Shown here: piece by piece, positions 249 to 51,211 of the stretch | Layout: the number at the start of each line of letters is the position of its first letter | Position numbering within the stretch: position 1 is the stretch's first letter | Source: an uncultured Bacilli bacterium | GTDB taxonomy: Bacteria; Bacillota_I; Bacilli_A; RF39; UBA660 | Direction: 5' to 3' | Assembly (NCBI GenBank): GCA_947624085.1 | Contig: CANQIK010000003.1 | Span: forward strand, 1-55,409 | DNA length: 55,409 nucleotides | The notes under the pieces: generated by a model | Told to the model about the DNA's origin: nothing | Seen by the model: the letters and a program-made list of their open reading frames with translations, nothing else | Database searches by the model: none | Program-made: the position numbers and the translations under genes

Positions 249-1691
249 TTATTTTACTTTATATGGATGAGCATCGCTTCCATCAATGTCGTCACCACCA
301 CTTAGTGTTACACTAGATTTAAGATAAAAGACCGGCCTAACGCCATAGCTACGCCACCATGTTTCTCCGTATTCTACGTCCACTTCTCCCCAATACGAAA
401 TGCAAAACGTATTCCATGTGTTAGCGCTAAAGGGCGTAATAGTCCATTCAAATACACTATTAAATAACCAATTATTTTCTATATTTAAACTATTATTATA
501 TGCTGAAATGAATGTTGCCCAATTTTCTTTACTACTTGCAAAGCTATAGTCATGAATATACATTAAACCCACATAAGCTGGAACGCCAGCTTTTGACAAT
601 TCAAGTGGTTTCTCATCATCATATACATTTTTTGGTGTGCCACCAGTTGTAAAATGACCATCAACCCTCCATTTTACTAATTCTATTTTTTGGGCGTCAG
701 AGCCTAAAGTTGAATTTAAATATTTACCATTTAATGACTGATATAATATACTAGTTTCCCAATCATTTTTTGCATTATAATGCCAATAGAACCCGTCGGT
801 TGGGAATTTTTTGACCCTTTTAATCGAATCATATTTTATATACGACGTTCCCATTGATGCAGTTCCTAACTGCTCCGATGTAGCATATTCTGATTTTATT
901 ACTTTAATACGATATTCTATATTTCCATTTGATAATTCTACCGGTACATACCCTATTATACGATATAAGTTTTCATCAGGACATGTTGTTGATGTGCCAT
1001 TATTATAGTTTTCACTACCTTTACCAAAACATATAAAGTTATTTGGGTTATTTCCTGAATAACGACATCCACCGTCGCCTGCATCGTCATATTCTCCGTC
1101 ACCATTGACATCTATTGTTTTATCATGTTTTATAACATCCGGACTTGAACATACATCTAATGACTTTTCTTCGGGTTCAGGTTCAGGTGTAGGCTCAGGC
1201 TCTGGGTCTGGGTCAGGATAAGTATAACTTGGTAACTTCTTACTTAAGCCTTCACAATCTTCAATCGCTTCTTTTCCTTCCGTTGCTAACTCTGAATCAT
1301 AATCCTTTTCATTAACATTATTAAAGACATATGTTCCATTTGATAGCCAAAACTTATAGCTATAGTTTTTAGTCTCTTCATCATATTCTATTAATACGGA
1401 TCCGGTATATCCTTCATCTTTCCCTTTATCATAATAATCATTTTCATTTAGCCATTTTAATGAGTAACATATTGATTTTGATCCTTTTATATTATTTGCT
1501 TCATCTATTTCATCTAACTTATGAGCATATTTAGCTGCTTCTATCATATGAAGCCCTTCTTCACCTAAGGCTCCTTTTCTTGCTCTTGTTATAAGGGGTC
1601 CTATAGAAGTAGCTGCTATTAGTATTACTACCCCTAATATTACGATAACTGCTATTAATTCTACTAACGTAAATCCTTTCCGATTCTTCAT
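249..1691 (-). CDS. Modular type IV pilin-like protein with large C-terminal 'GVRPVFYL' cargo domain
   Basis: 480-aa ORF. The N-terminus MKNRKG|FTLVELIAVIVILGV has a prepilin leader, Glu+5 and a hydrophobic helix, followed by a small pilin-like head. An acidic Pro/Glu linker PDPDPEPEPTPEPEPEE (nt ~1165-1215) follows. The remaining ~300 aa are shared with 16500-18185 and 28710-29990 (motifs CRYSGNNPNNFICFG, NLYRIIGYVPVE, IKSEYAT, ENNWLF..EWTI, GVRPVFYLKSSVTLSGGD...PYKV). SD AGAGGTG lies upstream. Confidence 0.85.
   Translation of the reverse strand: MKNRKGFTLVELIAVIVILGVVILIAATSIGPLITRARKGALGEEGLHMIEAAKYAHKLDEIDEANNIKGSKSICYSLKWLNENDYYDKGKDEGYTGSVLIEYDEETKNYSYKFWLSNGTYVFNNVNEKDYDSELATEGKEAIEDCEGLSKKLPSYTYPDPDPEPEPTPEPEPEEKSLDVCSSPDVIKHDKTIDVNGDGEYDDAGDGGCRYSGNNPNNFICFGKGSENYNNGTSTTCPDENLYRIIGYVPVELSNGNIEYRIKVIKSEYATSEQLGTASMGTSYIKYDSIKRVKKFPTDGFYWHYNAKNDWETSILYQSLNGKYLNSTLGSDAQKIELVKWRVDGHFTTGGTPKNVYDDEKPLELSKAGVPAYVGLMYIHDYSFASSKENWATFISAYNNSLNIENNWLFNSVFEWTITPFSANTWNTFCISYWGEVDVEYGETWWRSYGVRPVFYLKSSVTLSGGDDIDGSDAHPYKVK
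330..437 (-). other. GC-enriched hypervariable patch inside cargo domain (copy in pilin-fused paralogue)
   Basis: The 108 nt lie between the conserved EWTI and RPVFYL codons. My hand count gives 54/108 G+C in a ~30% GC genome. The protein sequence here is unalignable with the other paralogues. Confidence 0.7.
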
Positions 1692-10868: not shown

Positions 10869-11783
10869 CTAATTTCGCATATTTTCTATTAATATACCAA
10901 TATTTGATCCTACTTTATCTTTAAGTTCCTCGACGTTTTCACAATAATTTTTTTCGCGTTTTATAGCATCATCAATTTTGTCAACGAACATATCAAAATT
11001 TAAATTAGCTTTATCATATCCTATTATTTCTGAAAGCATTTTATCTGAATATTTTTTAGATCTTTTATTTGAATTAACGCGTTTATTTTCTAATAACTTA
11101 TCAAAATCTAAAGTATCAAACTGTTCAAAATGCATTAATAACCAAGCTTCAAAACAAGGATTACTTACATATAATTTAATATTATTTTTCTTACAACTAC
11201 TCACTAAATTATCATATTGATCTGGTTTAAAGTTACCCTTATCTCGATCAACAATTAAATTAATAACGTCAATTTCTGAATTATAGTCAAGAATAACTCT
11301 TTGAACATCTAAATAATTAATAATTTCAGAGGCTATATTTTCAAAGACATCATCTTTAAATATATCCATGATTATATTATCAATCTCACATAAATCTATT
11401 ATATCATTGGCATAATTTTCAATATAATTTTTTGCCATTTTTATTAATTCTTCTTTATTAAATAAAGCTTCATTTTTTATATAATCAACTAGGCATTTAT
11501 ATAAATTTTCTTTACTAATAACATTTTCGGTGCTCTGAGATTTAATGTCATTTGCCATTTTCAACGCATATTTAGGATGACTTTTAGAGGAGTCATCTAA
11601 ACTTCTTAGAACACTAATTAAAGATAATGATTGATTTATTGCTAATTTTTCTCTGTTAACTATGATACCATTAAAATACATTGGTTCAGTTACTTCGCCT
11701 TCATATATTAAAAAATACTTAGGCATTTCTGTCATTGTTTCATTTGGTCTTTCTGCAAATTTACTATTTGTCTGTACCCTCAT
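10869..11783 (-). CDS. RloB-like (Toprim-type) protein, partner of the upstream ATPase; AbiLii-like defence component
   Basis: 304 aa. RloB hallmarks are present: N-terminal FLIYEGEVTEPMYF, acidic IVDRD, and SNPCFEAWLLMHFE. It overlaps the ATPase gene by 20 nt, so the pair is translationally coupled. The true start could be M17 or M20. Confidence 0.8.
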   Translation of the reverse strand: MRVQTNSKFAERPNETMTEMPKYFLIYEGEVTEPMYFNGIIVNREKLAINQSLSLISVLRSLDDSSKSHPKYALKMANDIKSQSTENVISKENLYKCLVDYIKNEALFNKEELIKMAKNYIENYANDIIDLCEIDNIIMDIFKDDVFENIASEIINYLDVQRVILDYNSEIDVINLIVDRDKGNFKPDQYDNLVSSCKKNNIKLYVSNPCFEAWLLMHFEQFDTLDFDKLLENKRVNSNKRSKKYSDKMLSEIIGYDKANLNFDMFVDKIDDAIKREKNYCENVEELKDKVGSNIGILIENMRN

Positions 11784-13125
11784 TATATACCCCCGGAAAA
11801 TCTATAAAAATAGGAACTGCACCATATCTACCATCTAAATAGGCTTTATCTATCTTACGATCAAATCTAGCATCATCTTTAAATTGTTCCAATGAATATA
11901 ATTTTGTTGAGCCATCCTTTTTCTTTTCGGCAAACCATACTTCATCTCTTCTTAAAACATTATAACTCAATAATCGAGATTCATGAGTTGTAATTATCAA
12001 TTGGATATTTCTATTTTTTAATAGATTTAAAAAACAATTAACAAATCTAACTGTAAGAGATGGATGCAAGCTTCGATCAATCTCATCAATAATGAAAACT
12101 TTATTATCGGATAATAATATATCAATTAATTCTAAAATTCGAAGTGTTCCGTCAGATTCTTCATAAGTATCAAAATAAGTATTAGAATTAGTATGTAATA
12201 TTTTTATAACTTTTACATTAAGATTTTCATCTTTATTATTGCCACTTATTGTATATATACAATTTTCAATTCTTAAAGTTATATCAAATTTTGACACATT
12301 ATTGCTTATTTGATTAATATCAGATGTAAGTCTACTATATTCCGCTGGGGAAAGTCTATCTTTAATTTCTGACATATTAGATTCGCATTCTAATAAATCA
12401 TCGATATCAAGACCTAACATTTTTAATAAAGGTTTAATATCATTTTTAAATTGTGAAAAATAATTAAATTTAATTTCTCGATTTTGATTAGGCAATACTA
12501 ATTGCAAATCGTTTAGAAAAAAGTCAAAAACATTCTCAAAGTCAATAAAAGAAGAAGTTTTAACATCATTCATTTGGATTCTTCTTGTCATTTCAGTAAG
12601 AAAAAAGATATTATTATTATTTAATATATCACTTTTACAAACTTCAAAGCGGTTGGCATCGACTTTATCTTTTATTTTTAAATCCGTTTTAATCGTTTTT
12701 TTAATAGCATCTCTTTCAAATATAATAAACTGATTGTTTTTAGTCATATCAATAAGCCACTCAGAAACGATTTCTTTCTTATTGATATTTACTTCAAACC
12801 CATATGAATATAATTTATTATTTTTGGCAATTTCATATTCAAAATAAGAAGGTATTTCTTTATTTTTTTCATTTAGCCTAAAATATTGATTGGCAAACAA
12901 GCCTTGAATGTTATTAAGTAAAAGCTTTTTTCCTAAATCTATAGCTAAAACTAAATTAGATTTACCAGAGGCATTAGCACCATATATAGAACTAAATTTT
13001 AATATTTTTAAATTATTAATATTAGCGATATGTTCTGGAAAGTTTCGCGTTTTGCCCGCGACCATAGAAAAATGTTGCATATCATTAAATGACCTAAAAT
13101 TTTTAACTTTAAAGCCAATTAGCAT
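11764..13125 (-). CDS. AAA_21/ABC-type ATPase (AbiLi / OLD-, PARIS AriA-like defence ATPase)
   Basis: 453 aa. It has the N-terminal IGFKVKNFRSF, Walker A GANASGKSN, signature-like ESDGTLR, Walker B VFIIDEIDRSLHP, H-loop ITTHES, and a C-terminal YLDGRYGAVP. Confidence 0.85.
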   Translation of the reverse strand: MLIGFKVKNFRSFNDMQHFSMVAGKTRNFPEHIANINNLKILKFSSIYGANASGKSNLVLAIDLGKKLLLNNIQGLFANQYFRLNEKNKEIPSYFEYEIAKNNKLYSYGFEVNINKKEIVSEWLIDMTKNNQFIIFERDAIKKTIKTDLKIKDKVDANRFEVCKSDILNNNNIFFLTEMTRRIQMNDVKTSSFIDFENVFDFFLNDLQLVLPNQNREIKFNYFSQFKNDIKPLLKMLGLDIDDLLECESNMSEIKDRLSPAEYSRLTSDINQISNNVSKFDITLRIENCIYTISGNNKDENLNVKVIKILHTNSNTYFDTYEESDGTLRILELIDILLSDNKVFIIDEIDRSLHPSLTVRFVNCFLNLLKNRNIQLIITTHESRLLSYNVLRRDEVWFAEKKKDGSTKLYSLEQFKDDARFDRKIDKAYLDGRYGAVPIFIDFPGVYNEGTDK

Positions 13126-15909: not shown

Positions 15910-16137
15910 TTAAACTCTAACAAGTACTACATCTTTCCCAATCTTTTCTATATCACTATATTTAAAAGTTATCTCTTCTTTTTTAAAACTTCTTTGAAAT
16001 ATTTTTCTATTTTCAACTACAAAAGATATTATTTGCCCATTATCACCAATTTCAACATCAATAACATGACCATAATTAAGTCCTGTTTTCATAGATATGA
16101 TATCTTTATCTTGTAATTCTGATAAATACATATTCAT
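15910..16137 (-). CDS. YlmC/YmxH-family PRC-barrel (sporulation) protein
   Basis: 75 aa. (MN)MYLSELQDKDIISMKTGLNYGHVIDVEI..NGQIISFVV matches the small PRC-barrel YlmC/YmxH pattern. Confidence 0.7.
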   Translation of the reverse strand: MNMYLSELQDKDIISMKTGLNYGHVIDVEIGDNGQIISFVVENRKIFQRSFKKEEITFKYSDIEKIGKDVVLVRV

Positions 16138-16159
16138 ATTAAAGTATATTTATGGTACT

Positions 16160-16184
16160 AAAAAAGATGAAGAAATTCTTCATC
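16160..16184 (-). terminator. Rho-independent terminator ~315 nt downstream of the 16500-18185 stop codon
   Basis: The minus RNA reads GAUGAAG-AAUUU-CUUCAUC followed by UUUUUU. Confidence 0.6.
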
Positions 16185-16452
16185 ATTAAGATATATTAAC
16201 TTTATAAGGTTTGTCTACTGCTATTACTAAAGTAGGCAACTACATATTGGTGATTAATTCGAACTTGAAAAATTAAATAATAATCTATCTAAAAAAACTT
16301 TAGCAAAAAAACAAAATCATTTATTTATGTCTTTATTATCTATTACTATCGTTATTGTTATTATTTTTTTCAAAAGCAAAATCACTTTACTTCTGCCATT
16401 TTCAAGTTATTACCATAATTTTAATCGCTATTCCTTTCTACAGATTTACCCT

Positions 16453-16486
16453 GCTCGCCTCGCACCGTAAAGGCGCGAAGACGAGC
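16453..16486 (-). other. Long GC-rich hairpin immediately 3' of the 16500-18185 stop codon (no U-tract)
   Basis: The sense RNA reads GCUCGUCU(U)CGCGCC-UUUAC-GGUGCGAGGCGAGC. That is 14 bp including three G:U pairs, one bulge and a 5-nt loop. The G:U pairs become C:A mismatches on the other strand, so the structure is strand-specific. It starts 13 nt after the TGA stop. Confidence 0.7.
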
Positions 16487-16499
16487 CAATGTCCTATTT

Positions 16500-18185
16500 T
16501 CAGCTTACTTTAAATGGCTTGGATTGACTACCGTCAATACCGTCGCCACCACTTAAGGTTACACTAGAGTTTAGATAAAAGACCGGGCGCACACCATACG
16601 CGTCGTCAACGAAGTCGCCGCCGTCCACGTACCCACTGTAGCCGACATTGAACGCATAGTTAGTGCTGACTGAAACGCGCGAAATAGTCCATTCGTATAC
16701 ACCATTAAATAACCAATTATTTTCCCTGTTTTGGTTATTTTCAATTTCATCATCTTTACTATCATCATACATATAAAGCCTATATTCCCAGCTTTTTGGT
16801 TCACTTGCAAAGCCATAATCTGATGGATACATTAATCCTATTTCAGCTTGCACTTTTGTTTGTGCTCCTCCTGACTCATTCCATTCCTCATCATATACTT
16901 CTTTGGCTTTTGGTAATTCATCATTAGGATTTCCTCCAACATTCCATTGTACCTTTTCTATTTTACTTTCCCAGGTAGTACCCAATTTATTAAGAAAGCT
17001 TTTGTCATTGCTATTTAATGCTTTATATAATGAACTACTTCCCCATACATTAGCATTGTCGCTATCACAATCATCGTTCCAATGGAAACCATCAACACTA
17101 TCTTCTGCCTTTACCCTTTTTAAGCTTTTATAGTCATCCTCAAAATATTCAGTTCCATCTGCACTATCTTTGCCTAAATCATCATGAGTTGCATACTCTG
17201 ATTTTATTATTTTAAATAAATTTTGGGTTGTTGTACTATCATCTTCATTAACAACTTCGACTGGAACTATACCTATTATACGATACAAGTTACCATCATT
17301 GCAGGTATCAGATTTTCCATTATTATAGTTTTCACTGCCCGGGCCAAAACAAATAAAATTATTTGGATTACAGCCAGAATAACGATAGCCGTTATCTTCT
17401 GCGCCATTTTGTAATGTTTTATCATGCTTTAGTAATCCACCTATGCCCATAGGGCACAAATTAGATTTAGTTGTTGATATAGCCGTGTCATTCACAAGCT
17501 TTTCAGCGAACTCCTCAGCAGTTAACTTTTCGGAAAGGTTAGTTAGACCCCCCCCCGGTTTACACTTACTTGTCTTAAAATATATTTTGCCACTGAAAGT
17601 TTTGTTTAAATTTCCGTTTTGGTCTACATTTTCTAATTTATAGTGGCGGTATTTGAACGTCCAATTTTGTGTTGTAGCACTTGCGCCTTTTGTAGCAGTA
17701 ATGGAAGCATCCATTATTTTTTTGTCTGTGGATGTTTTCATGTTTTGTAAATCTAAAGATTGTTCACCTTTAGGATACAAACTGCCATTTGCAGAAGCAA
17801 CTATAGTGAGTTCATTAGCATGCGTTATGCCAAAATCACTGTCAGCATGGAACCACACTTCATAGTCACAAGTAACGCTATCATAATCTGAGTTGTTTTT
17901 TAAACTAACAGTACCTGCGCTAGAATTACTTTCAATATAATTATTTTCAGTTTCATTTGTTAATTGTAAAGGGTCAATATAAAATGTAAGGTTATTATCA
18001 GCATTTAAATTAAATGCTACATTAAGACCATTATTAAAGTTTATGTTTTCATTTATACCATTTAAAGTATTAGAAAAATAAGCAAAAGATACACTCATAA
18101 CGACAATAGCAACGAGTACTATACTTGAGGCTATCATAACAACAACTTTTTTACTATTCACTGACTTTTCTTCCGTTCTTTCCAT
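16500..18185 (-). CDS. Surface protein: TasA/camelysin-like signal and module fused through a poly-Gly (G9 tract) junction to the 'GVRPVFYL' cargo domain
   Basis: 561 aa with a strong SD AAGGAGGAAG. The N-terminus ...IVVMSVSFAYFSNTLNG resembles SipW-type signals (camelysin GGGTFAYFSD). Residues 1-209 align with the stand-alone 211-aa protein at 31925-32560 (TCDYEVWFH/TCNYKIYYQ, TQNWTFKYRHYKLENVDQ/SQTWSLHYRFYNLDVDQ, SGKIYFKTSKC/SGKIIIEGQNC). Residues ~214-561 are the cargo domain (GYRYSGCNPNNFICFGPGSENYNNG, NLYRIIGIVPVE, IKSEYAT, GLMYPSDYGFAS, ENNWLF..EWTI, GVRPVFYLNSSVTLSGGDG..KPFKV). Confidence 0.85.
   Translation of the reverse strand: MERTEEKSVNSKKVVVMIASSIVLVAIVVMSVSFAYFSNTLNGINENINFNNGLNVAFNLNADNNLTFYIDPLQLTNETENNYIESNSSAGTVSLKNNSDYDSVTCDYEVWFHADSDFGITHANELTIVASANGSLYPKGEQSLDLQNMKTSTDKKIMDASITATKGASATTQNWTFKYRHYKLENVDQNGNLNKTFSGKIYFKTSKCKPGGGLTNLSEKLTAEEFAEKLVNDTAISTTKSNLCPMGIGGLLKHDKTLQNGAEDNGYRYSGCNPNNFICFGPGSENYNNGKSDTCNDGNLYRIIGIVPVEVVNEDDSTTTQNLFKIIKSEYATHDDLGKDSADGTEYFEDDYKSLKRVKAEDSVDGFHWNDDCDSDNANVWGSSSLYKALNSNDKSFLNKLGTTWESKIEKVQWNVGGNPNDELPKAKEVYDEEWNESGGAQTKVQAEIGLMYPSDYGFASEPKSWEYRLYMYDDSKDDEIENNQNRENNWLFNGVYEWTISRVSVSTNYAFNVGYSGYVDGGDFVDDAYGVRPVFYLNSSVTLSGGDGIDGSQSKPFKVS
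16581..16682 (-). other. GC-rich, adenine-poor hypervariable patch inside cargo domain
   Basis: These are the 34 codons between EWTI and PVFYL: TCG CGC GTT TCA GTC AGC ACT AAC TAT GCG TTC AAT GTC GGC TAC AGT GGG TAC GTG GAC GGC GGC GAC TTC GTT GAC GAC GCG TAT GGT GTG CGC CCG GTC. My hand count gives 61/102 G+C and 16/102 A on the sense strand. Confidence 0.8.
17548..17556 (-). repeat. Homopolymeric G9 (C9 on plus strand) tract in coding sequence
   Basis: The plus strand reads agaCCCCCCCCCgg. The sense strand reads AAA CCG GGG GGG GGT CTA ACT AAC (KPGGGLTN). This is the longest G/C run I saw in the window; the others are 5 nt or shorter. Confidence 0.95.
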
Positions 18186-19296
18186 TTACGTTCTTCCTCC
18201 TTATAAATAATATAATTTCTTTTATAATTGCTATACATGGTGTGGCAATAACCATACCTAAAATACCAAAGAAATGAGCAAATATTAATAAGCCTACAAT
18301 AATAACAACAGGATTAAGTTGCATAGCTTTACTCATTACTAAAGGTTGTAAAACATAACTTTCGATAAATTGAACGATAGCTGCGATAACTAAAGTACCA
18401 ATACCTATTATAGGGCCTTGGGTAAATCCTACTATTGTAGCAGCCGCGCCCCCAATATAAGGACCAATATATGGAATTAAATCTGTAATACCACAGAATA
18501 AACCAAATAATACTGAACTATTAAGACCAATTACCATAAAGCCAATTGTATCAAAGACAAAGACAATAAATGCTACAAATAAAGTACCATTGATTACTTT
18601 ACGAGCTTCTGTACCAATTCTTTGAAATAAATGAACATAATCATCATGATTCTTTTTCGGTAATAATTTATAAAAATTATTAGTTATATTATCAAAATCA
18701 ATAAGCATATATAAACCAATAATTAAACTCATGACAATAACACCAACGGCTGAAACTAAACCTTTAACAATATTAATAATATTACTTGGCAAATTATTAG
18801 CGATACTTAAAGTAAAGTCTTTAATTGAAGATATAAGCCCATCTTTAATAGAGGTAACATCAATACCTTTAATATTAATCTTATTAATTAAATCCGTAGC
18901 CCAATTTGTAACTTTAGGTATAACGCCTGTTATATAATCGGCAAATTCACTAACTTGTTCATATAATATTGGCACAAAGAAATAAAAGAAGAAAGCTAAA
19001 ACAACTATAATCAATATAAAGATTAAAATTGCACTAGCTACTTTATTAAACTTTTTAGATACCAATTTTTTTTGTAAAGGATAAAAAAGCCACGCGATGA
19101 CAAAGCCGATAAAAAGAGGTGATATAACCCCCAAAATACCCTCGACTGCGGGGAAGATACTTGCTTGTTTACATATTAAAAATACGACAAAAATGATTGA
19201 AATAATAAGCATGATGTAGAATACTCTTAAAATATTTTTAGATAAATGAATTAATTCATTTAGACTTCGTTTATCCACTTCTTGATTTCTTTTCAT
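18154..19296 (-). CDS. AI-2E family transporter (PerM/YtvI-like permease)
   Basis: 380 aa, polytopic, with the typical AI-2E pattern (..IPYIGPYIGG.., ..QPLVMSKAM.LNP..). Its 3' end overlaps the next gene's start by 32 nt. Confidence 0.75.
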   Translation of the reverse strand: MKRNQEVDKRSLNELIHLSKNILRVFYIMLIISIIFVVFLICKQASIFPAVEGILGVISPLFIGFVIAWLFYPLQKKLVSKKFNKVASAILIFILIIVVLAFFFYFFVPILYEQVSEFADYITGVIPKVTNWATDLINKINIKGIDVTSIKDGLISSIKDFTLSIANNLPSNIINIVKGLVSAVGVIVMSLIIGLYMLIDFDNITNNFYKLLPKKNHDDYVHLFQRIGTEARKVINGTLFVAFIVFVFDTIGFMVIGLNSSVLFGLFCGITDLIPYIGPYIGGAAATIVGFTQGPIIGIGTLVIAAIVQFIESYVLQPLVMSKAMQLNPVVIIVGLLIFAHFFGILGMVIATPCIAIIKEIILFIRRKNVNGKNGRKVSE

Positions 19297-19378
19297 ATTC
19301 TCACCTAGAATCCTCTATTACCATTATATATATTATTTTAATTATATTCAAGAAAGACTAAATCAAAAAACACCTATT

Positions 19379-27140: not shown

Positions 27141-27707
27141 CTACTTACAATAAGTGTTTGTTTCACTATATTCACTATTAGTCCAAGTACGTGAACTACT
27201 GTTATAACTACTAGCAGGATCAATTAATTTCCTATTTGCTATTCCATCAGCAGTATTATCCATTATAATACACGCATATACCCGATTATATTCCATATAT
27301 ATTCTTATTTTTAAATTGTTTACTATAACATCATCAACCGGATTGGTCATTACGGCACAGCGCACAATCCCATCGGAATAATTGCTTTTTTGTTTAACAC
27401 ATTTAATAGAGCCCAAAGTACTTTTATTTTCATATTCGCTTGTTTCTAAGTCATTTGACTCGATTAAATCTCCTACCGTTTTAGTTATTTTTTTAGTAGC
27501 AACGCCACTGGCATTTAAAAATAATTCTTTATTATTTCCGCCATATTCTTGAGCAGCGGCAATCATTAAATCAAGTTTAGTTTCAAACATATTTTTATTA
27601 ATTTTATTTTTAATCGCCGCAATACTTGAAGAACCAATAAGGATAATAACTGTCAAGATAACTAAAACTGCTAAAAGCTCTACTAAAGTAAATCCCTTTT
27701 TATTCAT
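27141..27707 (-). CDS. Type IV pilin / pseudopilin-like protein (orphan)
   Basis: 188 aa. MNKKG|FTLVELLAVLVILTVIILIG has a prepilin leader, Glu+5 and a hydrophobic helix. Two Cys pairs (IKCVKQ...VRCAV and YACII...NTYCK) include a C-terminal disulfide-loop-like arrangement typical of pilins. Confidence 0.8.
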   Translation of the reverse strand: MNKKGFTLVELLAVLVILTVIILIGSSSIAAIKNKINKNMFETKLDLMIAAAQEYGGNNKELFLNASGVATKKITKTVGDLIESNDLETSEYENKSTLGSIKCVKQKSNYSDGIVRCAVMTNPVDDVIVNNLKIRIYMEYNRVYACIIMDNTADGIANRKLIDPASSYNSSSRTWTNSEYSETNTYCK

Positions 27708-28709: not shown

Positions 28710-29990
28710 TTAATTAACTTTGTAAGGTTTTGCGTAACTACCATCGCCACCACTTAAGATTACACTAGAGTTTAGATAGAATACAGGACGAACACCATGC
28801 ACGGTGCCAACGTGGCCGCTATTCAGATACCCAGTGTCGCCGACAAAGAACGCATTGATAGTGCCACCGCGCAAAATAGTCCATTCATAAATGGCATTAA
28901 ATAACCAATTATTTTCGCGGTTTTGGTTATTTTCTTCTTGTTCATTATCTTTAACATCATTATATTTATAAAGTCTATATTCCCAACTTTTTGGCTCACT
29001 AGCAAAGCCGTAGTCTGAGGGATACATTAGCCCTATTTTTGCTGGCACTTTTGTTTTTGCGCCATATGTGCTGCTCCATTCCTCATTATATGACTCTTTG
29101 GCTTTTGGAAGTTGATTTTTAGTACTTCCTCCAACATTCCACTGAACAGTTTCTATCTTATTTGCCCAGTTATTTAGATTATACAAATAACCTGATGAAC
29201 TGCCATTTAAAGTACTAAATAATGAACTACTACCCCATGTATTGTTATAGTCTTTATAGTCTTTGTTCCAATAGAAAGTCTCAACTCTTGTTTCAGCTTT
29301 AACTCTTTTTAAATCTTTATATGTAGAATTAAATGACTGCGTACCATCAGCTGTACTTTTTCCTAAATCACTTGCCGTTGCATATTCTGATTTTATCACT
29401 TTAATTAATTTTGTTTTTGTTCCATTTGATAATTCTACTGGGACATACCCTATTATGCGATATAAATTTCCATCAGGACACGCTCCTCCATTATTATAGG
29501 TTTCACTATTAGGTCCAAAACATATATAATTATTTGGATCATCTCCTGAATATCTATATCCCTGGTCATTAGCGCCATTTTCTAATAAGGAATTATGATA
29601 AATTAGTTCTCCTTCTCCACTTGGTCCTAATAATTTTTCAAAGAATTTTTCTTGTTCTGACTTAATATCAAAATATAATGTACAATTAGTGTTTTCATCG
29701 GCTTTTAATAAAACACTATTACTACTTGGGTTCCAATCGATTATATCTTCGGGAATTGTAGTACCATTACAGCTACTTTTTGCTACATTTAATACATAAT
29801 TACCGCTAGACCATACAGTTGAACTCCCTTGTGTATAACCACTGCCATTTTGATACATATAAGCTATACCACTATCATCTATTGTAAAATTTAATGGTTC
29901 ATTTTCCTTTTTATTTGTTAATAATATTGTGGAAATTACTACTATAACTATTACCAATAATACACTTATTATTCCTACTTTCTTTTTCAT
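28710..29990 (-). CDS. TM-anchored surface protein carrying the 'GVRPVFYL' cargo domain
   Basis: 426 aa with an N-terminal uncleaved-type anchor MKKKVGIISVLLVIVIVVISTILL and a ~110-aa unique region. The cargo domain is highly similar to 16500-18185 at both protein and DNA level (GYRYSGDDPNNYICFGPNSETYNNG, NLYRIIGYVPVE, IKSEYAT, GLMYPSDYGFASEPKSWEYRLY, ENNWLF..EWTI, GVRPVFYLNSSVILSGGDG..KPYKVN). Confidence 0.85.
   Translation of the reverse strand: MKKKVGIISVLLVIVIVVISTILLTNKKENEPLNFTIDDSGIAYMYQNGSGYTQGSSTVWSSGNYVLNVAKSSCNGTTIPEDIIDWNPSSNSVLLKADENTNCTLYFDIKSEQEKFFEKLLGPSGEGELIYHNSLLENGANDQGYRYSGDDPNNYICFGPNSETYNNGGACPDGNLYRIIGYVPVELSNGTKTKLIKVIKSEYATASDLGKSTADGTQSFNSTYKDLKRVKAETRVETFYWNKDYKDYNNTWGSSSLFSTLNGSSSGYLYNLNNWANKIETVQWNVGGSTKNQLPKAKESYNEEWSSTYGAKTKVPAKIGLMYPSDYGFASEPKSWEYRLYKYNDVKDNEQEENNQNRENNWLFNAIYEWTILRGGTINAFFVGDTGYLNSGHVGTVHGVRPVFYLNSSVILSGGDGSYAKPYKVN
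28782..28874 (-). other. GC-rich, adenine-poor hypervariable patch inside cargo domain
   Basis: These are the 31 codons between EWTI and FYL: TTG CGC GGT GGC ACT ATC AAT GCG TTC TTT GTC GGC GAC ACT GGG TAT CTG AAT AGC GGC CAC GTT GGC ACC GTG CAT GGT GTT CGT CCT GTA. My hand count gives 52/93 G+C and 14/93 A. Confidence 0.8.
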
Positions 29991-30561: not shown

Positions 30562-31188
30562 CTAACTATAAAGAACTACTGTTGCGCTAAAAGTTTTATC
30601 CATTGATTCAGTACTTGCATCTTTACTAACCCATACATATAAATCATAATTTTTAGTTGCTTTATTTGTTATACTAGCAGTACCAATATTGTACACAGTA
30701 GTTGCTGACTTTTGATATTTTTTATTTAGATAATTTTGAATATCAGTTGATAATGATTTTGAATTACTACTAAGTGTTTTAACATTATTTTTATTTAACG
30801 TTTGACTTGTTGTAGTCTCTACTAAAAGGAATCTTAATTTATCTATAGGGAAACTACTAGAATTTAACGGAACTATACCAATACTAAGTGATTTAGTCTC
30901 AGTACAATCATTTTTGACACTAAATGAATATTTAAAATTTGATTGAGTATTACTACTACTATTAAAGAACTGGTCATCGGTAATGGGCACAGCATAATCA
31001 TGTGGCAAAGTAAATGCTTTTGAATCACTAATTGTTAAGCCTACACAGCTTGGGATTGATGTTGTCGTTTGCATTTCAACTGTTTTACTGGCACTAATTG
31101 TATAATAAGCATAAGAAGAGGATATAAATGCACACATAATTATAAGTGTTAAAGAAAGAATAAGAATTATCAAATTCTTTTGTTTCAT
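30562..31188 (-). CDS. Secreted ~205-aa protein, TasA/camelysin-like N-terminal signal (cluster member 4)
   Basis: 208 aa. N-terminus MKQKNLIILILSLTLIIMCAFISSSYAYYTISASK. It is a close paralogue of 31275-31892 (shared VEMQ/NATTS.PSC.GL.I, YAVPITDDQF.NS, FKYSF.VKNDCT..KSL.IG.VP.NS, YDLY.W, K.F..TVVLY). Confidence 0.75.
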   Translation of the reverse strand: MKQKNLIILILSLTLIIMCAFISSSYAYYTISASKTVEMQTTTSIPSCVGLTISDSKAFTLPHDYAVPITDDQFFNSSSNTQSNFKYSFSVKNDCTETKSLSIGIVPLNSSSFPIDKLRFLLVETTTSQTLNKNNVKTLSSNSKSLSTDIQNYLNKKYQKSATTVYNIGTASITNKATKNYDLYVWVSKDASTESMDKTFSATVVLYS

Positions 31189-31226
31189 AAATTACCTTCT
31201 TTCATATCTTTTATTACTTTAAGTGT

Positions 31227-31235
31227 AGTATAACA
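31227..31235 (-). promoter_or_regulatory. Extended -10 element (TGTTATACT) directly after a terminator
   Basis: It is part of a 21-nt string CACTTTTTTTATGTTATACTA that is repeated identically at 32584-32604. Confidence 0.4.
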
Positions 31236-31236
31236 T

Positions 31237-31257
31237 AAAAAAAGTGGCAATGCCACT
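31237..31257 (-). terminator. Rho-independent terminator after 31275-31892
   Basis: The minus RNA reads AGUGGC-AUU-GCCACU followed by UUUUUUU. Confidence 0.6.
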
Positions 31258-31274
31258 ATTTCATAAAATATTTT

Positions 31275-31892
31275 TTAGTTATAAAGGACCACAGTATATT
31301 TAAATTCTTTATTCATAGTACTATCAGTAGCAGTAGAGTCAAGCCACATATATAAATCGTAGGTTTTAGAACTGCTAGCAGAAATTGTGGCAGTACCAAC
31401 GTTATATGTTGTTGTAGCAGTAATGCTGTATGTCTTTTTCAAATAATCTTGCAAATCCTTATTCAAAGTCACGCTAGAAGGAAGGTTTTTTACGTTTTCT
31501 TTTTTAAGACTAGAATTACTCTCCACTAATATATATTTTATTTTAGATATAAGTGAAGTATCACTATTTGTTGGAACTACTCCAATTTTTAATGATTTTT
31601 GCGTAGTGCAATCATTTTTAACAGTAAAAGAATATTTAAATTTATTTTGTGTTGTAGTGTTACTATTTAAAAATTGGTCATCGGTAATGGGCACAGCATA
31701 ATCTTTTTCTAAAGTAAAGGTTTTATTACTTGTTATATGTAGTCCTATACAACTTGGTGTACTAGTTGTTGCATTCATTTCAACCGTTTTATTTGTATTT
31801 ATTACATAATAACCATATGAAGCAGAAATACACATAGATGCAACTAGTAAAACAGAAATTATTGTAAGTGCAATTGTTCTCTTTTTATTCAT
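31275..31892 (-). CDS. Secreted ~205-aa protein, TasA/camelysin-like N-terminal signal (cluster member 3)
   Basis: I chose the start at MNKKRTIAL (SD AGGGGA 8 nt upstream). N-terminus ...LLVASMCISASYGYYVINTNK. It is a paralogue of 30562-31188 and lies 26 nt after the previous gene, so it is probably co-transcribed. Confidence 0.75.
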   Translation of the reverse strand: MNKKRTIALTIISVLLVASMCISASYGYYVINTNKTVEMNATTSTPSCIGLHITSNKTFTLEKDYAVPITDDQFLNSNTTTQNKFKYSFTVKNDCTTQKSLKIGVVPTNSDTSLISKIKYILVESNSSLKKENVKNLPSSVTLNKDLQDYLKKTYSITATTTYNVGTATISASSSKTYDLYMWLDSTATDSTMNKEFKYTVVLYN

Positions 31893-31924
31893 AAACATTT
31901 CCCCTTGTTTAAAGTATATTAGTT

Positions 31925-32560
31925 TTAACGGGCATAGCAGTTTTGACCTTCAATTATAATTTTACCCGAAGGATTTTTCCCTATAACATCTGATTGATCA
32001 ACATCTAAGTTATAAAAACGATAATGCAAACTCCAAGTTTGGGAAGCAGTACCAGTAGTTTGATTAGTCGTTATATTTCCCGAATAAAGCTCTTTTTTAC
32101 TAGATACATTAGCAATTGATGTAGTTGTAAAATTGGTGCTTGTGTTACTTATTTCTCCACTTATGCCTAATTCAGTTTTGCCAGAGCTAGCACTTGAAGC
32201 CGTATATTGGGTTGTTGGTTGATAATAAATCTTATAGTTGCAAGTTACGGCTTTTTTATATTGGCTTGGGTTAACTGTAACATTGATCGTTACATTATGA
32301 GTTTCGTCAATATATTTTGACATATTATTATTAGCCGTAGACACAGTTAAATTATCAAGTGTGACATTTAAACTAAAATTAGTATTTCCTGTTATATTAA
32401 ATATATTTTGAGGATTTAAGACATTACCATTTAAAACGTCTGTGTTACTAATATTAGCTTTATATCCAATGTAACCATATGAAAATATGGCTGCTAAACC
32501 TACTAAAAAGACAACTGTTAGTGATAAACTATAAATTAAATTCTTATTTTTCTTATCCAT
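31925..32560 (-). CDS. Secreted 211-aa protein homologous to the N-terminal module of 16500-18185 (cluster member 2)
   Basis: N-terminus ...VVFLVGLAAIFSYGYIGYKANISN. It aligns along its whole length with residues 1-209 of the 561-aa protein and ends (...SGKIIIEGQNCYAR*) where that protein has its G9 tract. Confidence 0.75.
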   Translation of the reverse strand: MDKKNKNLIYSLSLTVVFLVGLAAIFSYGYIGYKANISNTDVLNGNVLNPQNIFNITGNTNFSLNVTLDNLTVSTANNNMSKYIDETHNVTINVTVNPSQYKKAVTCNYKIYYQPTTQYTASSASSGKTELGISGEISNTSTNFTTTSIANVSSKKELYSGNITTNQTTGTASQTWSLHYRFYNLDVDQSDVIGKNPSGKIIIEGQNCYAR

Positions 32561-32583
32561 TTCAACTTTCCTATTCTAAAATT

Positions 32584-32592
32584 AGTATAACA
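32584..32592 (-). promoter_or_regulatory. Extended -10 element (TGTTATACT) after the 32635-33618 gene
   Basis: The same 21-nt string CACTTTTTTTATGTTATACTA occurs at 31227-31247. Confidence 0.4.
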
Positions 32593-32595
32593 TAA

Positions 32596-32620
32596 AAAAA
32601 GTGACTTTACACCACTTTTT
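32596..32620 (-). terminator. Weak AT-rich terminator-like hairpin after 32635-33618
   Basis: The minus RNA reads AAAAAGUG-9 nt-CACUUUUU followed by further U residues. Only 3 G:C pairs. Confidence 0.3.
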
Positions 32621-32634
32621 ATACTACTTTACTT

Positions 32635-33618
32635 TTATTTAGCTTCAATATTTTTAGCAGCGATGGTAATGCTTCCCTTAAAGCTTTTTTCAGTATTAAC
32701 ATTTTGATTATGGTTTAAATTAACCATTCTAATGCCCGCGATATAATAATTAGTGCTATTCTTATCTTTAGTAGTAGCAATTGTTCCATTATCTAAAACC
32801 GTTACTTTATCTTTAGGAGCTTTCTCAGTAATATCTACTCTTTTTATTAAATTATAGCATTTATTATTCTCATAAATATTAGCTACCCACATACCATTTG
32901 ACGTACAACTACTTTCACTTTTGATACTACTATCAATAGTGCCATCATACTTTACACAAACTCCTTTAGACGAAGTTCCTGCTCCTCCTATACATTCATC
33001 TTCGGTAAGAGCGTCATTTTTAGCATATAAATCAAGCACTAATTCAGGAACTTGTTCTTTAACCCATACTGTATTAGCTTGCGTCATACAAGAAATTTCA
33101 CTATTATCTAAACCATTTAAATTAGCAAGCTCAGAATTTTCTAAATCATAACAAGCATAAGTCTCATCTTCATAACTTATTCCCCAAGCTTTATTACTTC
33201 CTACACAGCTAGCAAATGTATTATAAGTATTTTCTTTTTGAGCATTATTTTTTAAATAACATTTTCCAGAGGTATACTCAAAATTATTTTCTTCAACATT
33301 TAAGGATATTTCATATTCATGCGTAACTTTTTCTTTACCCGTAGTAAGGCTAACACTAATTTCCGTGCTATCAAATGGATCAGTCATGTTAACTCCAAAA
33401 TTATCTTGAGTAACATTTAAAGTTAAATTATCGCCACTATCAAATTGAAAAAGATCACCGGCATCGCCAACATGACCATTAATATTAGCACTAGCTTCAT
33501 TTTCAACAACACTACCTAAATAAGCAAAAGTCGCTCCCACGACAACTATAACCATAGTAGCTATAGCAATAACAATTAACAAAATAACATTATTATCTTT
33601 TTCATTTTTGGTATCCAT
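32635..33618 (-). CDS. Secreted 327-aa protein, TasA/camelysin-like signal/module with Cys-rich insertion (cluster member 1)
   Basis: N-terminus ...MVIVVVGATFAYLGSVVENEASANINGH; compare camelysin GGGTFAYFSD. The C-terminal strand NQNVNTEKSFKGSITIAAK resembles the family ending. A central ~150 aa carry 10 Cys in C-x(n)-C pairs. SD GGAGGA. Confidence 0.75.
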   Translation of the reverse strand: MDTKNEKDNNVILLIVIAIATMVIVVVGATFAYLGSVVENEASANINGHVGDAGDLFQFDSGDNLTLNVTQDNFGVNMTDPFDSTEISVSLTTGKEKVTHEYEISLNVEENNFEYTSGKCYLKNNAQKENTYNTFASCVGSNKAWGISYEDETYACYDLENSELANLNGLDNSEISCMTQANTVWVKEQVPELVLDLYAKNDALTEDECIGGAGTSSKGVCVKYDGTIDSSIKSESSCTSNGMWVANIYENNKCYNLIKRVDITEKAPKDKVTVLDNGTIATTKDKNSTNYYIAGIRMVNLNHNQNVNTEKSFKGSITIAAKNIEAK

Positions 33619-36365: not shown

Positions 36366-36389
36366 TTCTCTAACCTCCTTTAATTTTAT

Positions 36390-36453
36390 AAGTCACACCT
36401 TTAAGGTAAGTACTGCTACTTTTAAAACCTTTTTAGAGTGGATGAAATGACTT
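36390..36453 (-). promoter_or_regulatory. Possible L21-leader-type structured 5' UTR
   Basis: A 200-nt non-coding gap lies upstream of rplU. The sense strand has nested complementary arms AAGUCA...UGACUU, CCAC...GUG(U)G and AAGG...CCUU just 5' of the SD. Firmicutes carry an autoregulatory L21 leader at this position. I could not check this against a covariance model. Confidence 0.3.
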
Positions 36454-43726: not shown

Positions 43727-44344
43727 TTAAGATTTTTTGACATAAACAAATTCACAAACACCTGGTCCCTTAAATGATGCTTGACCGTTTTCATTTATAG
43801 TTGGTCTTTCTGTAGTAGTGTTTAAACTTAAACAGTCAGATAATTCCGGGCTAAACGTATAACCAGTAGTGATAGAAGTAGACGTTTTAGCTTGAAATGT
43901 TTTGCCATTATCATTGCTAATGTAAACTTTAGAAGATAAATCATCTGTAGATGTTATTTTATCAAAATAGGCTGAGCAGCTACCTATTTGTCCATAAGAT
44001 AATGTAAGAACACTGTTATCAACAGCTGCAAAATAGCTACCATTATCACAGCTACTTTTTTCAGGGTTAAATATATATCCAGTAGGGACGGCTTGATTTT
44101 TAGATTCAGCATAACTATTTACAGGAGTACTGCCTTGTAATTCTTGTAAATAAATTCTTACGCGAATATCGGAAGTTTCAATATTGGCAGTACCGGTAAT
44201 AACTAAATTAGTATTTGTAGTTGTGTAAAAAGCATATGAGAAATATGCAACAGCAGAAAGTAATAGCACAACTAAAAGAACCATACCAAGTGTGATATAA
44301 CTTTTTTTGTTAGGCACTACCTTATTACGAAACCATTCCTTCAT
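43727..44344 (-). CDS. Secreted ~205-aa protein with TasA/camelysin-like N-terminal signal (solitary copy)
   Basis: 205 aa. N-terminus ...VVLLLSAVAYFSYAFYTTTNTNLVITGTANIE has the same signal style and size as the 30562-32560 proteins. It has its own TATAAT promoter and is flanked by terminators. Confidence 0.7.
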   Translation of the reverse strand: MKEWFRNKVVPNKKSYITLGMVLLVVLLLSAVAYFSYAFYTTTNTNLVITGTANIETSDIRVRIYLQELQGSTPVNSYAESKNQAVPTGYIFNPEKSSCDNGSYFAAVDNSVLTLSYGQIGSCSAYFDKITSTDDLSSKVYISNDNGKTFQAKTSTSITTGYTFSPELSDCLSLNTTTERPTINENGQASFKGPGVCEFVYVKKS

Positions 44345-51176: not shown

Positions 51177-51211
51177 AGGCGCCAATAAATCAAAAAAGGA
51201 GGGTTTTGATT

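Follow-up and report, generated by a model that had tools for sequence, protein, structure and literature searches.

A run of nine guanines sits at the boundary between the two modules of a predicted surface protein of an uncultured gut member of the Bacilli and, judging from its sequence context, we consider it plausible (probability of about 0.45) that this run acts as a slippage switch. The gene lies in a stretch of DNA of 55,409 nt with 29.8% GC, the whole of which is referred to below as the window. The gene and its main features are:

16500-18185, minus strand: gene for a 561-aa protein, supported by the ORF list, alignments and an AF2 model; stop codon at 16500-16502
18196-18200, minus strand: Shine-Dalgarno sequence GGAGG, seen in the sequence 10 nt upstream of the ATG at 18185
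18063-18155, minus strand: predicted N-terminal hydrophobic helix (aa 11-41), from the AF2 model and alignments
17557-18062, minus strand: beta-sandwich N-terminal module (aa ~42-210), from the family alignment and an AF2 model (pLDDT 87.4)
17548-17556, minus (sense) strand: G9 homopolymer, C9 on the plus strand, read directly from the sequence
16503-17546, minus strand: C-terminal domain (aa 214-561), DUF6273-related (C-type-lectin-like)

The protein consists, in order, of an N-terminal TM helix, the beta-sandwich module, a PGGG linker and a C-terminal variable domain of ~350 aa. The helix, which includes the family motif S-F-A-Y-F-S, is predicted to be a signal anchor or signal peptide, and the protein, with its extracellular domains following the TM helix, is predicted to be surface-exposed. 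The gene for an AI-2E transporter (18154-19296) overlaps this gene, and the Shine-Dalgarno sequence falls within the 3' end of the transporter gene; the stretch from AI-2E to YlmC covers window positions ~16100-19300.

The homopolymer was picked out by a sequence-only reading, which placed it at 17548-17556 in this gene and described it as the longest G/C run in the window; the sequence confirms both statements. The tract spans the codons CCG GGG GGG GGT (P210-G211-G212-G213), i.e., the third base of Pro210, all of Gly211 and Gly212 and the first two bases of Gly213. It is the sole G/C run longer than 5 nt, the remaining 18 runs being exactly 5 nt each, and runs of at least 9 nt are expected by chance only ~0.007 times in the window under an iid model and ~0.02 times under a first-order Markov model. 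Within the window GGG makes up 10.7% of Gly codons and CCG 8.7% of Pro codons, and the probability of a G9 given the peptide PGGG is ~8e-4 from codon usage; GGG opens five of the 66 other Gly-Gly dipeptides. No G/C run of at least 9 nt was found in 759 kb of related loci and, therefore, the genomes of these loci otherwise lack such long tracts. A family-wide tendency to homopolymers was considered and rejected: the few G7-G8 runs in other family genes are in-frame, encode a conserved W-x-x-G-G motif and lie away from the junction. In an Rfam scan of the window an L21 leader was the only match, with none at the G9 tract or at the hairpin behind the stop codon (see below).

The position of the tract at a module boundary, also claimed from the sequence, is now better supported. 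An exhaustive HMMER search gave 75 representatives of the N-module family, and their alignment, which reaches query residues ~208-213, shows an invariant C106 and conservation of C208 in 90% or more of the sequences. The module closes at Cys208 (codon 17562-17564), after which come Lys209 and Pro210, and the G9 tract lies two codons past this conserved Cys. About half of the family are stand-alone proteins, which stop 1-8 residues past the Cys equivalent to C208 (e.g., ...FKAGSCG-stop and ...KKCYEGTKASS-stop), and the fused members run on from the point where the stand-alone ones end. Several separate stand-alone paralogues are encoded in the window itself (30562-33618 and 43727-44344). Since the aligned site in P0132 reads GCKP-LKTLSD where the window protein has KCKP-GGG-LTNLSE, the Gly3 looks like an insertion, such as an in-frame expansion of the tract would give.

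A change in tract length runs directly into one of two stop codons:

17543-17545, minus strand: TAA, read in the G8 and G11 frames in the sequence
17539-17541, minus strand: TAA, read in the G10 and G7 frames in the sequence

The immediate stop anticipated for G8 and G10 holds, and it extends to G7 and G11. The G8 form ends in ...KPGGV (213 aa) and the G10 form in ...KPGGGSN (215 aa), and the G7 (...KPGGSN) and G11 (...KPGGGV) forms have 214 aa each. Only 5.9% of the coding positions in the window likewise lead to termination within three codons in both off-frames, and the double stop is therefore mildly unusual for this DNA. The resemblance of these products to a stand-alone paralogue, another point of the sequence-only reading, stands up in both size and end point when they are compared with natural family members. 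Exact look-up among ~15 billion proteins returned no match for the predicted G7, G8, G10 and G11 products, nor for orphan C-domain ORFs. As in known contingency loci, the gene carries a G/C tract of at least about 8 nt within the ORF, and a change in its length truncates the product.

The domain beyond the tract, previously regarded simply as cargo, appears to be a DGR-type hypervariable target domain, which is a new finding of this analysis. The segment concerned lies at its extreme C-terminus:

16584-16685, minus strand: DGR variable-region-like segment with ~50% GC, encoding TISRVSVSTNYAFNVGYSGYVDGGDFVDDAYGVRP and ending in the GC-rich GGTGTGCGCCCG

We base this assignment on two observations. 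One homologue (L063) has a template/variable repeat pair in which 20 of 21 substitutions fall at template adenines, and beside it are an ORF of Avd size and a reverse transcriptase bearing IGNxxSQ and YMDD motifs. Furthermore, 17 of the 21 differences between the window gene and an apparent second allele (L095) are at positions aligned to the template adenines of L063, which here serves as a proxy template (p=6e-6); L095 and L085 derive from one sample and may be two alleles occurring together or the product of a chimeric join. The window protein itself matches PF19789 with E=0.004 and 17.4 bits, below the curated cut-off of 23.5, and PF19789 is present in many homologues. DUF6273 has been described as a C-lectin-like DGR target (PMC10743442). 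The C-domain recurs in two paralogues in the window (28710-29990 and 249-1691) and at >500 loci of gut Bacilli MAGs; such loci were recovered by an alignment-based contig scan, and a single-protein scan recovered none. Its closest homologue is P0003, for which no contig was found. The AF2 model of the domain is of low confidence, and Foldseek searches of the PDB and BFVD with the full-length model (pLDDT 59) were uninformative, giving generic beta-sandwich matches at very low TM. Profile searches of the PDB with both modules found no relatives.

The likeness to established DGR targets (Bordetella phage Mtd, Treponema TvpA, the DUF6273 "tentaclins" and Faecalibacterium prophage targets; PMC10743442) includes, besides the cassette of the homologue and the two alleles that differ at template-adenine positions, the extreme C-terminal location of the variable region and its GC-rich ...GTGCGCCCG end. 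Unlike these targets, the window protein has a DUF6273 match below threshold, and the 55-kb window contains no template repeat and, by motif scan (IGNxxSQ ... YxDD), no reverse transcriptase; a DGR cassette, if present, would therefore act in trans from outside the window. A further difference, from targets such as Mtd, is that this is a membrane-anchored protein of a cell and not part of a phage tail. We rejected the possibility that the GC-rich 3' end of the gene forms a template/variable pair within the window, as the segments at 28733-28953 and 239-479 are paralogous C-termini with mismatches that are not adenine-specific.

In the reading we propose, the gene would encode a membrane-anchored surface protein in which a TM helix and a beta-sandwich stalk of ~170 aa are joined through the PGGG linker to a C-type-lectin-like domain of ~350 aa, the tip of which would be the DGR variable region. 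The G9 run that encodes the Gly3 linker is expected to be the most slippage-prone site of the gene; in Campylobacter, Helicobacter, Neisseria and Haemophilus, G/C tracts of 8-9 nt or more behave as hypermutable contingency loci. Such loci switch reversibly and at high rates, in many cases alongside mismatch repair that is weak or missing. If replication slippage changed the tract to G8 or G10, a stop would follow 2-3 codons on, leaving a 213-215-aa protein with the architecture seen in natural stand-alone proteins of the module family. In this OFF state the DGR-variable binding domain would not be made, or would not be exported, and it would reappear once the tract was back at G9 (or at G6 or G12). 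For such a switch we infer appreciable variation in tract length, reversibility and a functional truncated product. The more elaborate version, in which two independent hypermutation devices act on one gene, the DGR rewriting the ligand-binding tip and the poly-G switch reversibly stripping the domain to leave a bare stalk with the architecture of the genome's stand-alone paralogues, strikes us as rather unlikely.

The tract is not an assembly artefact, a possibility allowed for in the sequence-only reading, because three independent ENA assemblies (ERZ27249370, ERZ27249363 and ERZ27249377) carry an identical G9 within their contigs (L083, L084 and L085). Homopolymers are error-prone in several technologies, including two-colour poly-G calls by Illumina instruments and long-read homopolymer miscalls, and the supporting contigs have only ~3x coverage. 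However, all four assemblies agree, with unique flanks on both sides of a contig-internal tract; the frame is intact, the sequence on either side is homologous to that of relatives, and systematic homopolymer error would be hard to reconcile with the dense, uninterrupted ORFs of the window. A sequencing or assembly error is thus largely refuted, and we regard it as extremely improbable. The same four consensus sequences, all from one clonal strain and with ~3x coverage in the supporting contigs rather than deep read data, contain no variant of tract length, and all populations sampled to date have the gene in its ON (G9) state. Invariance, which the sequence-only reading had named as evidence against a switch, is accordingly seen in weak form: G9 in four of four and no OFF product, but in shallow consensus sequences of a single strain. 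No match came from JGI metagenomes, which were scanned for the junction at whatever tract length and for close relatives of the N-module.

A rival reading is an inert linker, in which Pro-Gly3 is written in odd codons, stable on ecological time-scales, and rare frameshifts are deleterious nulls that are purged. Such a linker would probably have arisen by a single in-frame slippage expansion or at the recombination junction of a module swap. We consider this quite possible, if somewhat short of an even chance. Flexible, Gly-rich linkers are to be expected between domains in any case, selection need not be invoked for the codon oddity if the tract grew neutrally by +3 (G6 to G9), and the in-frame W-x-x-G-G runs of other family genes are accompanied by no visible disruption. 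The locus also appears to be a strain-variable gene-replacement hot-spot, and the junction could therefore be a recombination scar. In 46 fused homologues the longest G/C run near the junction is at most 5 nt, and P0002 and P0015 have no homopolymer there; at the locus the sister lineage carries another member of the family (the type represented by P0198), which has no G/C run of 5 nt or more. The tract is therefore young, and a switch, if there is one, would lack evolutionary conservation. The retention of the fusion by orthologues without a homopolymer had been put forward as a second argument against a switch, and in spirit this is what the homologues display. On the other hand, the codon-level probability of the run is low, long G/C runs are avoided elsewhere in the window and in the 759 kb of relatives, and a G9 tract is inherently unstable in every bacterium studied. 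The coincidence with the natural stand-alone end point would, moreover, make truncation unusually benign. An alternative that leaves the gene unchanged is slippage during expression, with RNA polymerase stutter or ribosomal frameshifting on the G9 giving a fixed mix of full-length and stalk-only protein and so setting the stoichiometry of bare and cargo-bearing subunits. It would agree with a G9 in the DNA of all samples and with the immediate stops in both alternative frames, which give a product sized like the stand-alone paralogues. Slippage of transcription is favoured on long homopolymers, as in dnaX of Thermus and mxiE of Shigella, and frameshift genes with two isoforms are common in phage tail assembly; known bacterial slippage sites, however, are mostly A/T runs. 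Moreover, there is no recognisable slippery heptamer or downstream stimulatory structure, the homologues lack the tract, and a bare subunit would hardly need another route, since several stand-alone paralogues are already encoded. We judge expression-level slippage improbable.

Compared with the SSR contingency loci of Campylobacter jejuni, Helicobacter pylori, Neisseria and Haemophilus, the candidate switch has in its favour an intragenic G9 in a low-GC genome of a host-associated bacterium, a predicted surface protein, an immediate stop upon a +/-1 slip and membership of a diversifying multigene family. It differs from them in the lack of length polymorphism (G9 in all four sequences) and in the absence of the tract from homologues. 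Those organisms have a genome-wide set of tracts, whereas here there is one in 55 kb and none in the 759 kb of relatives. Their tracts lie near the 5' end, whereas this one lies at an interdomain linker, so that the OFF form would be a truncation and not a null. Another parallel is the HsdS of NgoAV in Neisseria gonorrhoeae, in which a polyG lies between the two target-recognition halves and the truncated form is active (PMC9577141). There, as proposed here, slippage at a two-module junction toggles between a two-module and a one-module protein, and the truncated form is itself a natural architecture. The two proteins are unrelated, one being a DNA specificity subunit and the other a surface protein, and for NgoAV experiments have shown both that the tract varies and that the truncated form is active, whereas for the window gene we infer both.

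The description of the N-terminal module as TasA-like finds no support. Neither the module nor the stand-alone paralogues match Pfam or NCBIfam, and a profile of the module found nothing relevant in the PDB at E<=10. A Foldseek search of the PDB with the module's AF2 model returned generic jelly-roll/CBM and viral jelly-roll folds at TM<=0.31, and neither TasA nor CalY/camelysin was among the top 50 matches. A Pfam scan of 40 ORFs of the window detected no SipW-type signal peptidase, the sole peptidase nearby being LspA, according to the Peptidase_A8 annotation of a syntenic 169-aa gene. What the module shares with TasA/CalY (camelysin, Peptidase_M73) is a length of ~200 aa, a hydrophobic N-terminal segment with an A-Y/F-F-S-like motif after it, a body that is all-beta and jelly-roll-like, and the occurrence of several tandem paralogues. 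The conserved Cys pair (C106 and C208) is, to our knowledge, not a feature of TasA.

Should the tract switch, it would provide a simple case of stochastic surface remodelling among uncultured gut Bacilli, a lineage of which hardly anything is known functionally. No phase variation is known to us for this uncultured organism of the Gram-positive lineage, and the system would be the first described in these gut Bacilli with reduced genomes. Likewise, no DGR target that also carries an SSR switch is known to us; the gene would be the first SSR phase-variable DGR target, with SSR phase variation layered on DGR hypermutation, and a cell could set both whether the receptor is displayed and which specificity it has. 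It would also be the second case, after the gonococcal HsdS of NgoAV, of a boundary homopolymer whose OFF form is a naturally occurring shorter architecture. If it does not switch, the tract is an ordinary Gly linker with odd codons. Regardless of the tract, the analysis describes a large unannotated family that joins a TM-anchored beta-sandwich stalk to a DUF6273-like tip and appears to be a DGR target family at a strain-variable replacement hot-spot, which helps to annotate these MAGs. The family is multigene and appears subject to both DGR hypermutation and locus replacement, a combination typical of genes under diversifying selection.

Within the 55-kb window no MutS or MutL is encoded. 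Downstream of the gene lies one further element:

16453-16487, minus strand: GC-rich hairpin, 13 nt after the stop codon (-27.4 kcal/mol, z=-2.3)

A canonical intrinsic terminator was rejected for this hairpin, which has no U-tract and was not flagged by terminator prediction; it is possibly a transcript-end or DGR-associated structure. Two contigs (L096 and L097) both begin nearby, at 16440. The Logan run ERR10663777 has a downstream flank identical to that of the window, whereas the ERR106637xx runs seen at the syntenic locus belong to the sister lineage. The gene at 16500-18185 has no N_methyl or TIGR02532 match for the cleavage/methylation motif (G-F-T-L-x-E) of type IV pilins and pseudopilins; the prepilin motif was found instead in the paralogue at 249-1691 and in the ORF at 27141-27707.

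The 561-aa ORF 16500-18185 (minus strand) contains a sense-strand run of nine guanines (C9 on the plus strand at 17548-17556), and the codons across it, AAA CCG GGG GGG GGT CTA ACT AAC, encode K209-P210-G211-G212-G213-L-T-N. As the sequence-only reading had stated, this is the longest G/C run of the window: it is the only one above 5 nt in 55,409 nt of 29.8% GC, where a first-order Markov model predicts ~0.02 runs of at least 9 nt, and no run of at least 9 nt occurs across 759 kb of related loci. Since GGG accounts for 10.7% of glycine codons and CCG for 8.7% of proline codons, the probability that a PGGG peptide is spelled as a G9 run is ~8e-4. The immediate stops proposed for the slipped forms were also recovered, with G8 giving ...KPGGV* (213 aa), G10 giving ...KPGGGSN* (215 aa) and G7 and G11 each giving 214 aa. 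These stops are mildly, not strikingly, unusual, because both off-frames close within three codons at 5.9% of the coding positions in the window.

Three more assemblies of the same strain (L083-L085) were recovered via the exact sequence of the neighboring AI-2E protein and are 99.99-100% identical to the window. All three read G9 and were assembled straight through the tract. The tract is not an artefact, a reading that we give next to no weight because these three independent ENA metagenome assemblies hold the identical sequence inside contigs.

The window, an unremarkable stretch of chromosome from a low-GC bacterium with a cell wall, encodes PNPase, Lon, Der, Obg, RelA/SpoT, Ddl, a Mur ligase, FtsW, SHMT, ThyX, Tmk and RuvAB (LspA and RluD were assigned from the Pfam annotation of syntenic sister-lineage genes). 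The start of ORF 16500-18185 overlaps the end of the AI-2E transporter gene. Relatives of the gene gave 517 matches, single genomes often having upwards of 10 copies, and came only from uncultured gut Bacilli MAGs of rabbit ("Lapin"), human (BRZ, Hadza) and chicken ("Candidatus Onthocola") and from one "uncultured Tenericutes" MAG. Two elements flank the coding sequence:

10 nt before the ATG of ORF 16500-18185, minus strand: GGAGG, the gene's own, read from the sequence
16453-16487, minus strand: strong GC-rich hairpin 13 nt past the stop codon, without a U-tract (-27 kcal/mol, z=-2.3)

HMMER, run exhaustively over 1.84 billion representatives, identified 75 relatives of the N-terminal module (aa 1 to ~210), and their alignments all stop at query residues ~208-213. 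Some half of them stand alone at 197-217 aa, and the remainder carry C-terminal extensions (450-820 aa). A conserved cysteine closes every module (C208 in the window protein; C106 is invariant). Stand-alone members end 1-8 residues past it (...FKAGSCG*, ...FKPLGCKNE*, ...KKCYEGTKASS*), and fused members run on from the same point. The G9 tract starts two codons 3' of C208, so that its proposed position at the module boundary holds, as does the proposed size match between the OFF products (213-215 aa) and stand-alone relatives. By these alignments, the tract occupies the one position where truncation would recreate a natural architecture. At the nearest comparable junction, that of the homologue P0132, GCKP-LKTLSD stands against KCKP-GGG-LTNLSE in the window, and thus the three glycines look like an insertion.

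The AF2 model of the module, a confident one (pLDDT 87.4), predicts a helix spanning residues 11-41 and then an all-beta domain. The earlier "TasA-like" label is not supported, because the module had no match in Pfam, NCBIfam or a PDB profile search, and the top 50 Foldseek matches in the PDB were all generic CBM or viral jelly-roll folds (TM<=0.31) and included neither TasA nor camelysin nor a pilin. The module is thus no demonstrable member of the TasA or pilin families, and we describe it simply as a putative TM-anchored beta-sandwich with a conserved cysteine pair. Four stand-alone paralogues (208, 207, 211 and 327 aa) form a tandem array at 30562-33618 (minus), and a fifth copy lies at 43727-44344 (minus). 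In all five, the TM segment precedes an S-[YF]-[AG]-[YF]-[FY] motif, and Pfam and NCBIfam give no match.

The C-terminal domain (aa 214-561) is common to two in-window paralogues with differing N-termini:

28710-29990, minus strand: paralogue with a short TM N-terminus
249-1691, minus strand: paralogue with a type IV prepilin N_methyl motif at its N-terminus

One genome combines a single C-terminal variable-type domain with three N-termini (beta-sandwich module, short TM segment, prepilin leader), and a ComGD-like minor pilin gene (27141-27707, minus) adjoins 28710-29990. The match of the window protein to DUF6273 is sub-threshold, but precomputed annotation assigns this domain to many homologues. 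As a C-type-lectin-like target of diversity-generating retroelements (DGRs), DUF6273 is documented in the literature (PMC10743442).

GC content rises to ~50% over the final ~250 nt of the gene together with the flank directly downstream. A true DGR variable region occupies the corresponding segment of the homologue L063; a template repeat lies 320 nt downstream of it, and 20 of the 21 positions that differ between the two fall at template adenines. The template repeat is followed by an Avd-sized ORF and by a reverse transcriptase bearing the motifs IGNMTSQ and YMDD.

L063:1186-1287/1603-1701/2555-3649: DGR elements, compared with window 16584-16685 (minus)

A second allele of the window gene (L095:1-620, sample ERZ27249377) is 100% identical to the window from ~16600 onward, with the stop codon, the hairpin and 5.7 kb of flank included. 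It shows 21 scattered differences within 16584-16685, 17 of which align to L063 template adenines (Fisher p=6e-6). The GC-rich 3' end (16584-16685, minus) thus behaves as a DGR variable region, and the C-terminal tip very probably is one. The 55,409-nt window contains no reverse transcriptase and no template repeat, and therefore the cassette would need to lie at another site of the genome and act from there. Across the 759 kb, family genes have no further long G runs apart from in-frame G7-G8 runs (L052:6167-6173, L070:4955-4961, L074:6104-6110, L069:5272-5279); the three G7 runs encode Gly-Gly in the conserved W-H-L-G-G motif of the C-terminal domain.

We assign a probability of roughly 0.45 to a slippage switch that stands at ON in every population sampled and whose OFF form is a natural-like bare stalk: slippage at G9 would shift the frame and leave a truncated stalk without the C-terminal domain. 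Its favorable evidence is the intrinsic improbability of the tract in DNA that otherwise lacks long G/C runs, its placement where truncation mimics stand-alone proteins, and the nature of the gene, a predicted surface protein under obvious diversifying pressure, as shown by DGR variation, membership of a multigene family and replacement at the locus. To our knowledge, G9 tracts are hypermutable through slipped-strand mispairing in every bacterium examined. That the truncated product works as a "bare subunit" is more doubtful than the switch, since nothing indicates polymerization of the N-terminal module.

Against the switch, a collection of 15 billion proteins contained none of the four truncated products (G7, G8, G10, G11) and no orphan C-domain ORF of the kind expected from gene-calling an OFF allele. 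The same fusion without a homopolymer, which the sequence-only reading had named as counting against it, occurs in 46 homologues, none with a homopolymer near the junction (those of P0002 and P0015 were inspected codon by codon). The sister lineage, with perfect synteny and flanks 84-89% identical, carries at the locus a different, 441-aa family member with no G/C run of at least 5 nt. Because homologues and sister lineage lack the tract and all assemblies of the strain read G9, the tract is young and specific to the strain, and its length has so far been invariant. Comparison of the window with the three other assemblies revealed no length polymorphism; four consensus sequences at ~3x from one clone make this a low-powered test, and invariance is weak negative evidence and no refutation. 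An inert linker or recombination scar is a somewhat less probable account of the tract than the switch. Slippage at the level of expression, yielding two isoforms from the G9 gene, is improbable; other readings share the few per cent of weight left over.

The slippage switch would be an ordinary example of simple-sequence-repeat (SSR) contingency loci, a membership that cannot be granted here because observed length polymorphism, the defining feature of the class, is negative at the consensus level and the tract is not conserved in relatives. If real, it would represent a known type of system in an unstudied lineage. We know of no prior description of a DGR target that is also subject to SSR switching, and such dual hypermutation of this gene is unlikely. 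The nearest specific precedent is gonococcal hsdS1 (NgoAV), where a polyG tract toggles between full and active truncated specificity subunits (PMC9577141).

The interval from the AI-2E transporter to a 75-aa YlmC-like gene (~16150-18150) is a gene-replacement hot-spot, as compared among the window, L086-L094 and L104 (sister lineage), L095, L101 and L103. Flanks are 84-100% identical and the resident family member differs: the 561-aa gene in the window, a 441-aa short-N-terminus type in the sister lineage, a different C-domain allele in L095, and a third 3' end in L101 and L103, where homology resumes at 16151. L085 and L095, both from ERZ27249377, overlap at 16978-17167, with L085 the same as the window there and L095 at ~75-80% identity; this reflects either co-existing alleles or strains, or a chimeric join via the shared 3' end. 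Each of the window-type contigs (L083-L085) ends within the 3' third of the gene, and L096 and L097, from different samples, both start at 16440, just beyond the hairpin.

Elsewhere, an RloB-like and AAA_21 (AbiEii/OLD-type ATPase) gene pair lies between the rhomboid and PNPase genes (10869-13125, minus), and is a probable inserted defence module because at this position the sister lineage carries the S15 gene alone. The sole Rfam match in the window is a ribosomal protein L21 leader (36381-36453, minus; RF00559, 36.7 bits). Two adjacent large ORFs, 51206-52750 (plus, 514 aa) and 52775-54865 (plus, 696 aa), have no Pfam match, and the latter includes a Cys-rich stretch (CPTGYNKVGNYCYKY...CPAGYTDDGTKCY).
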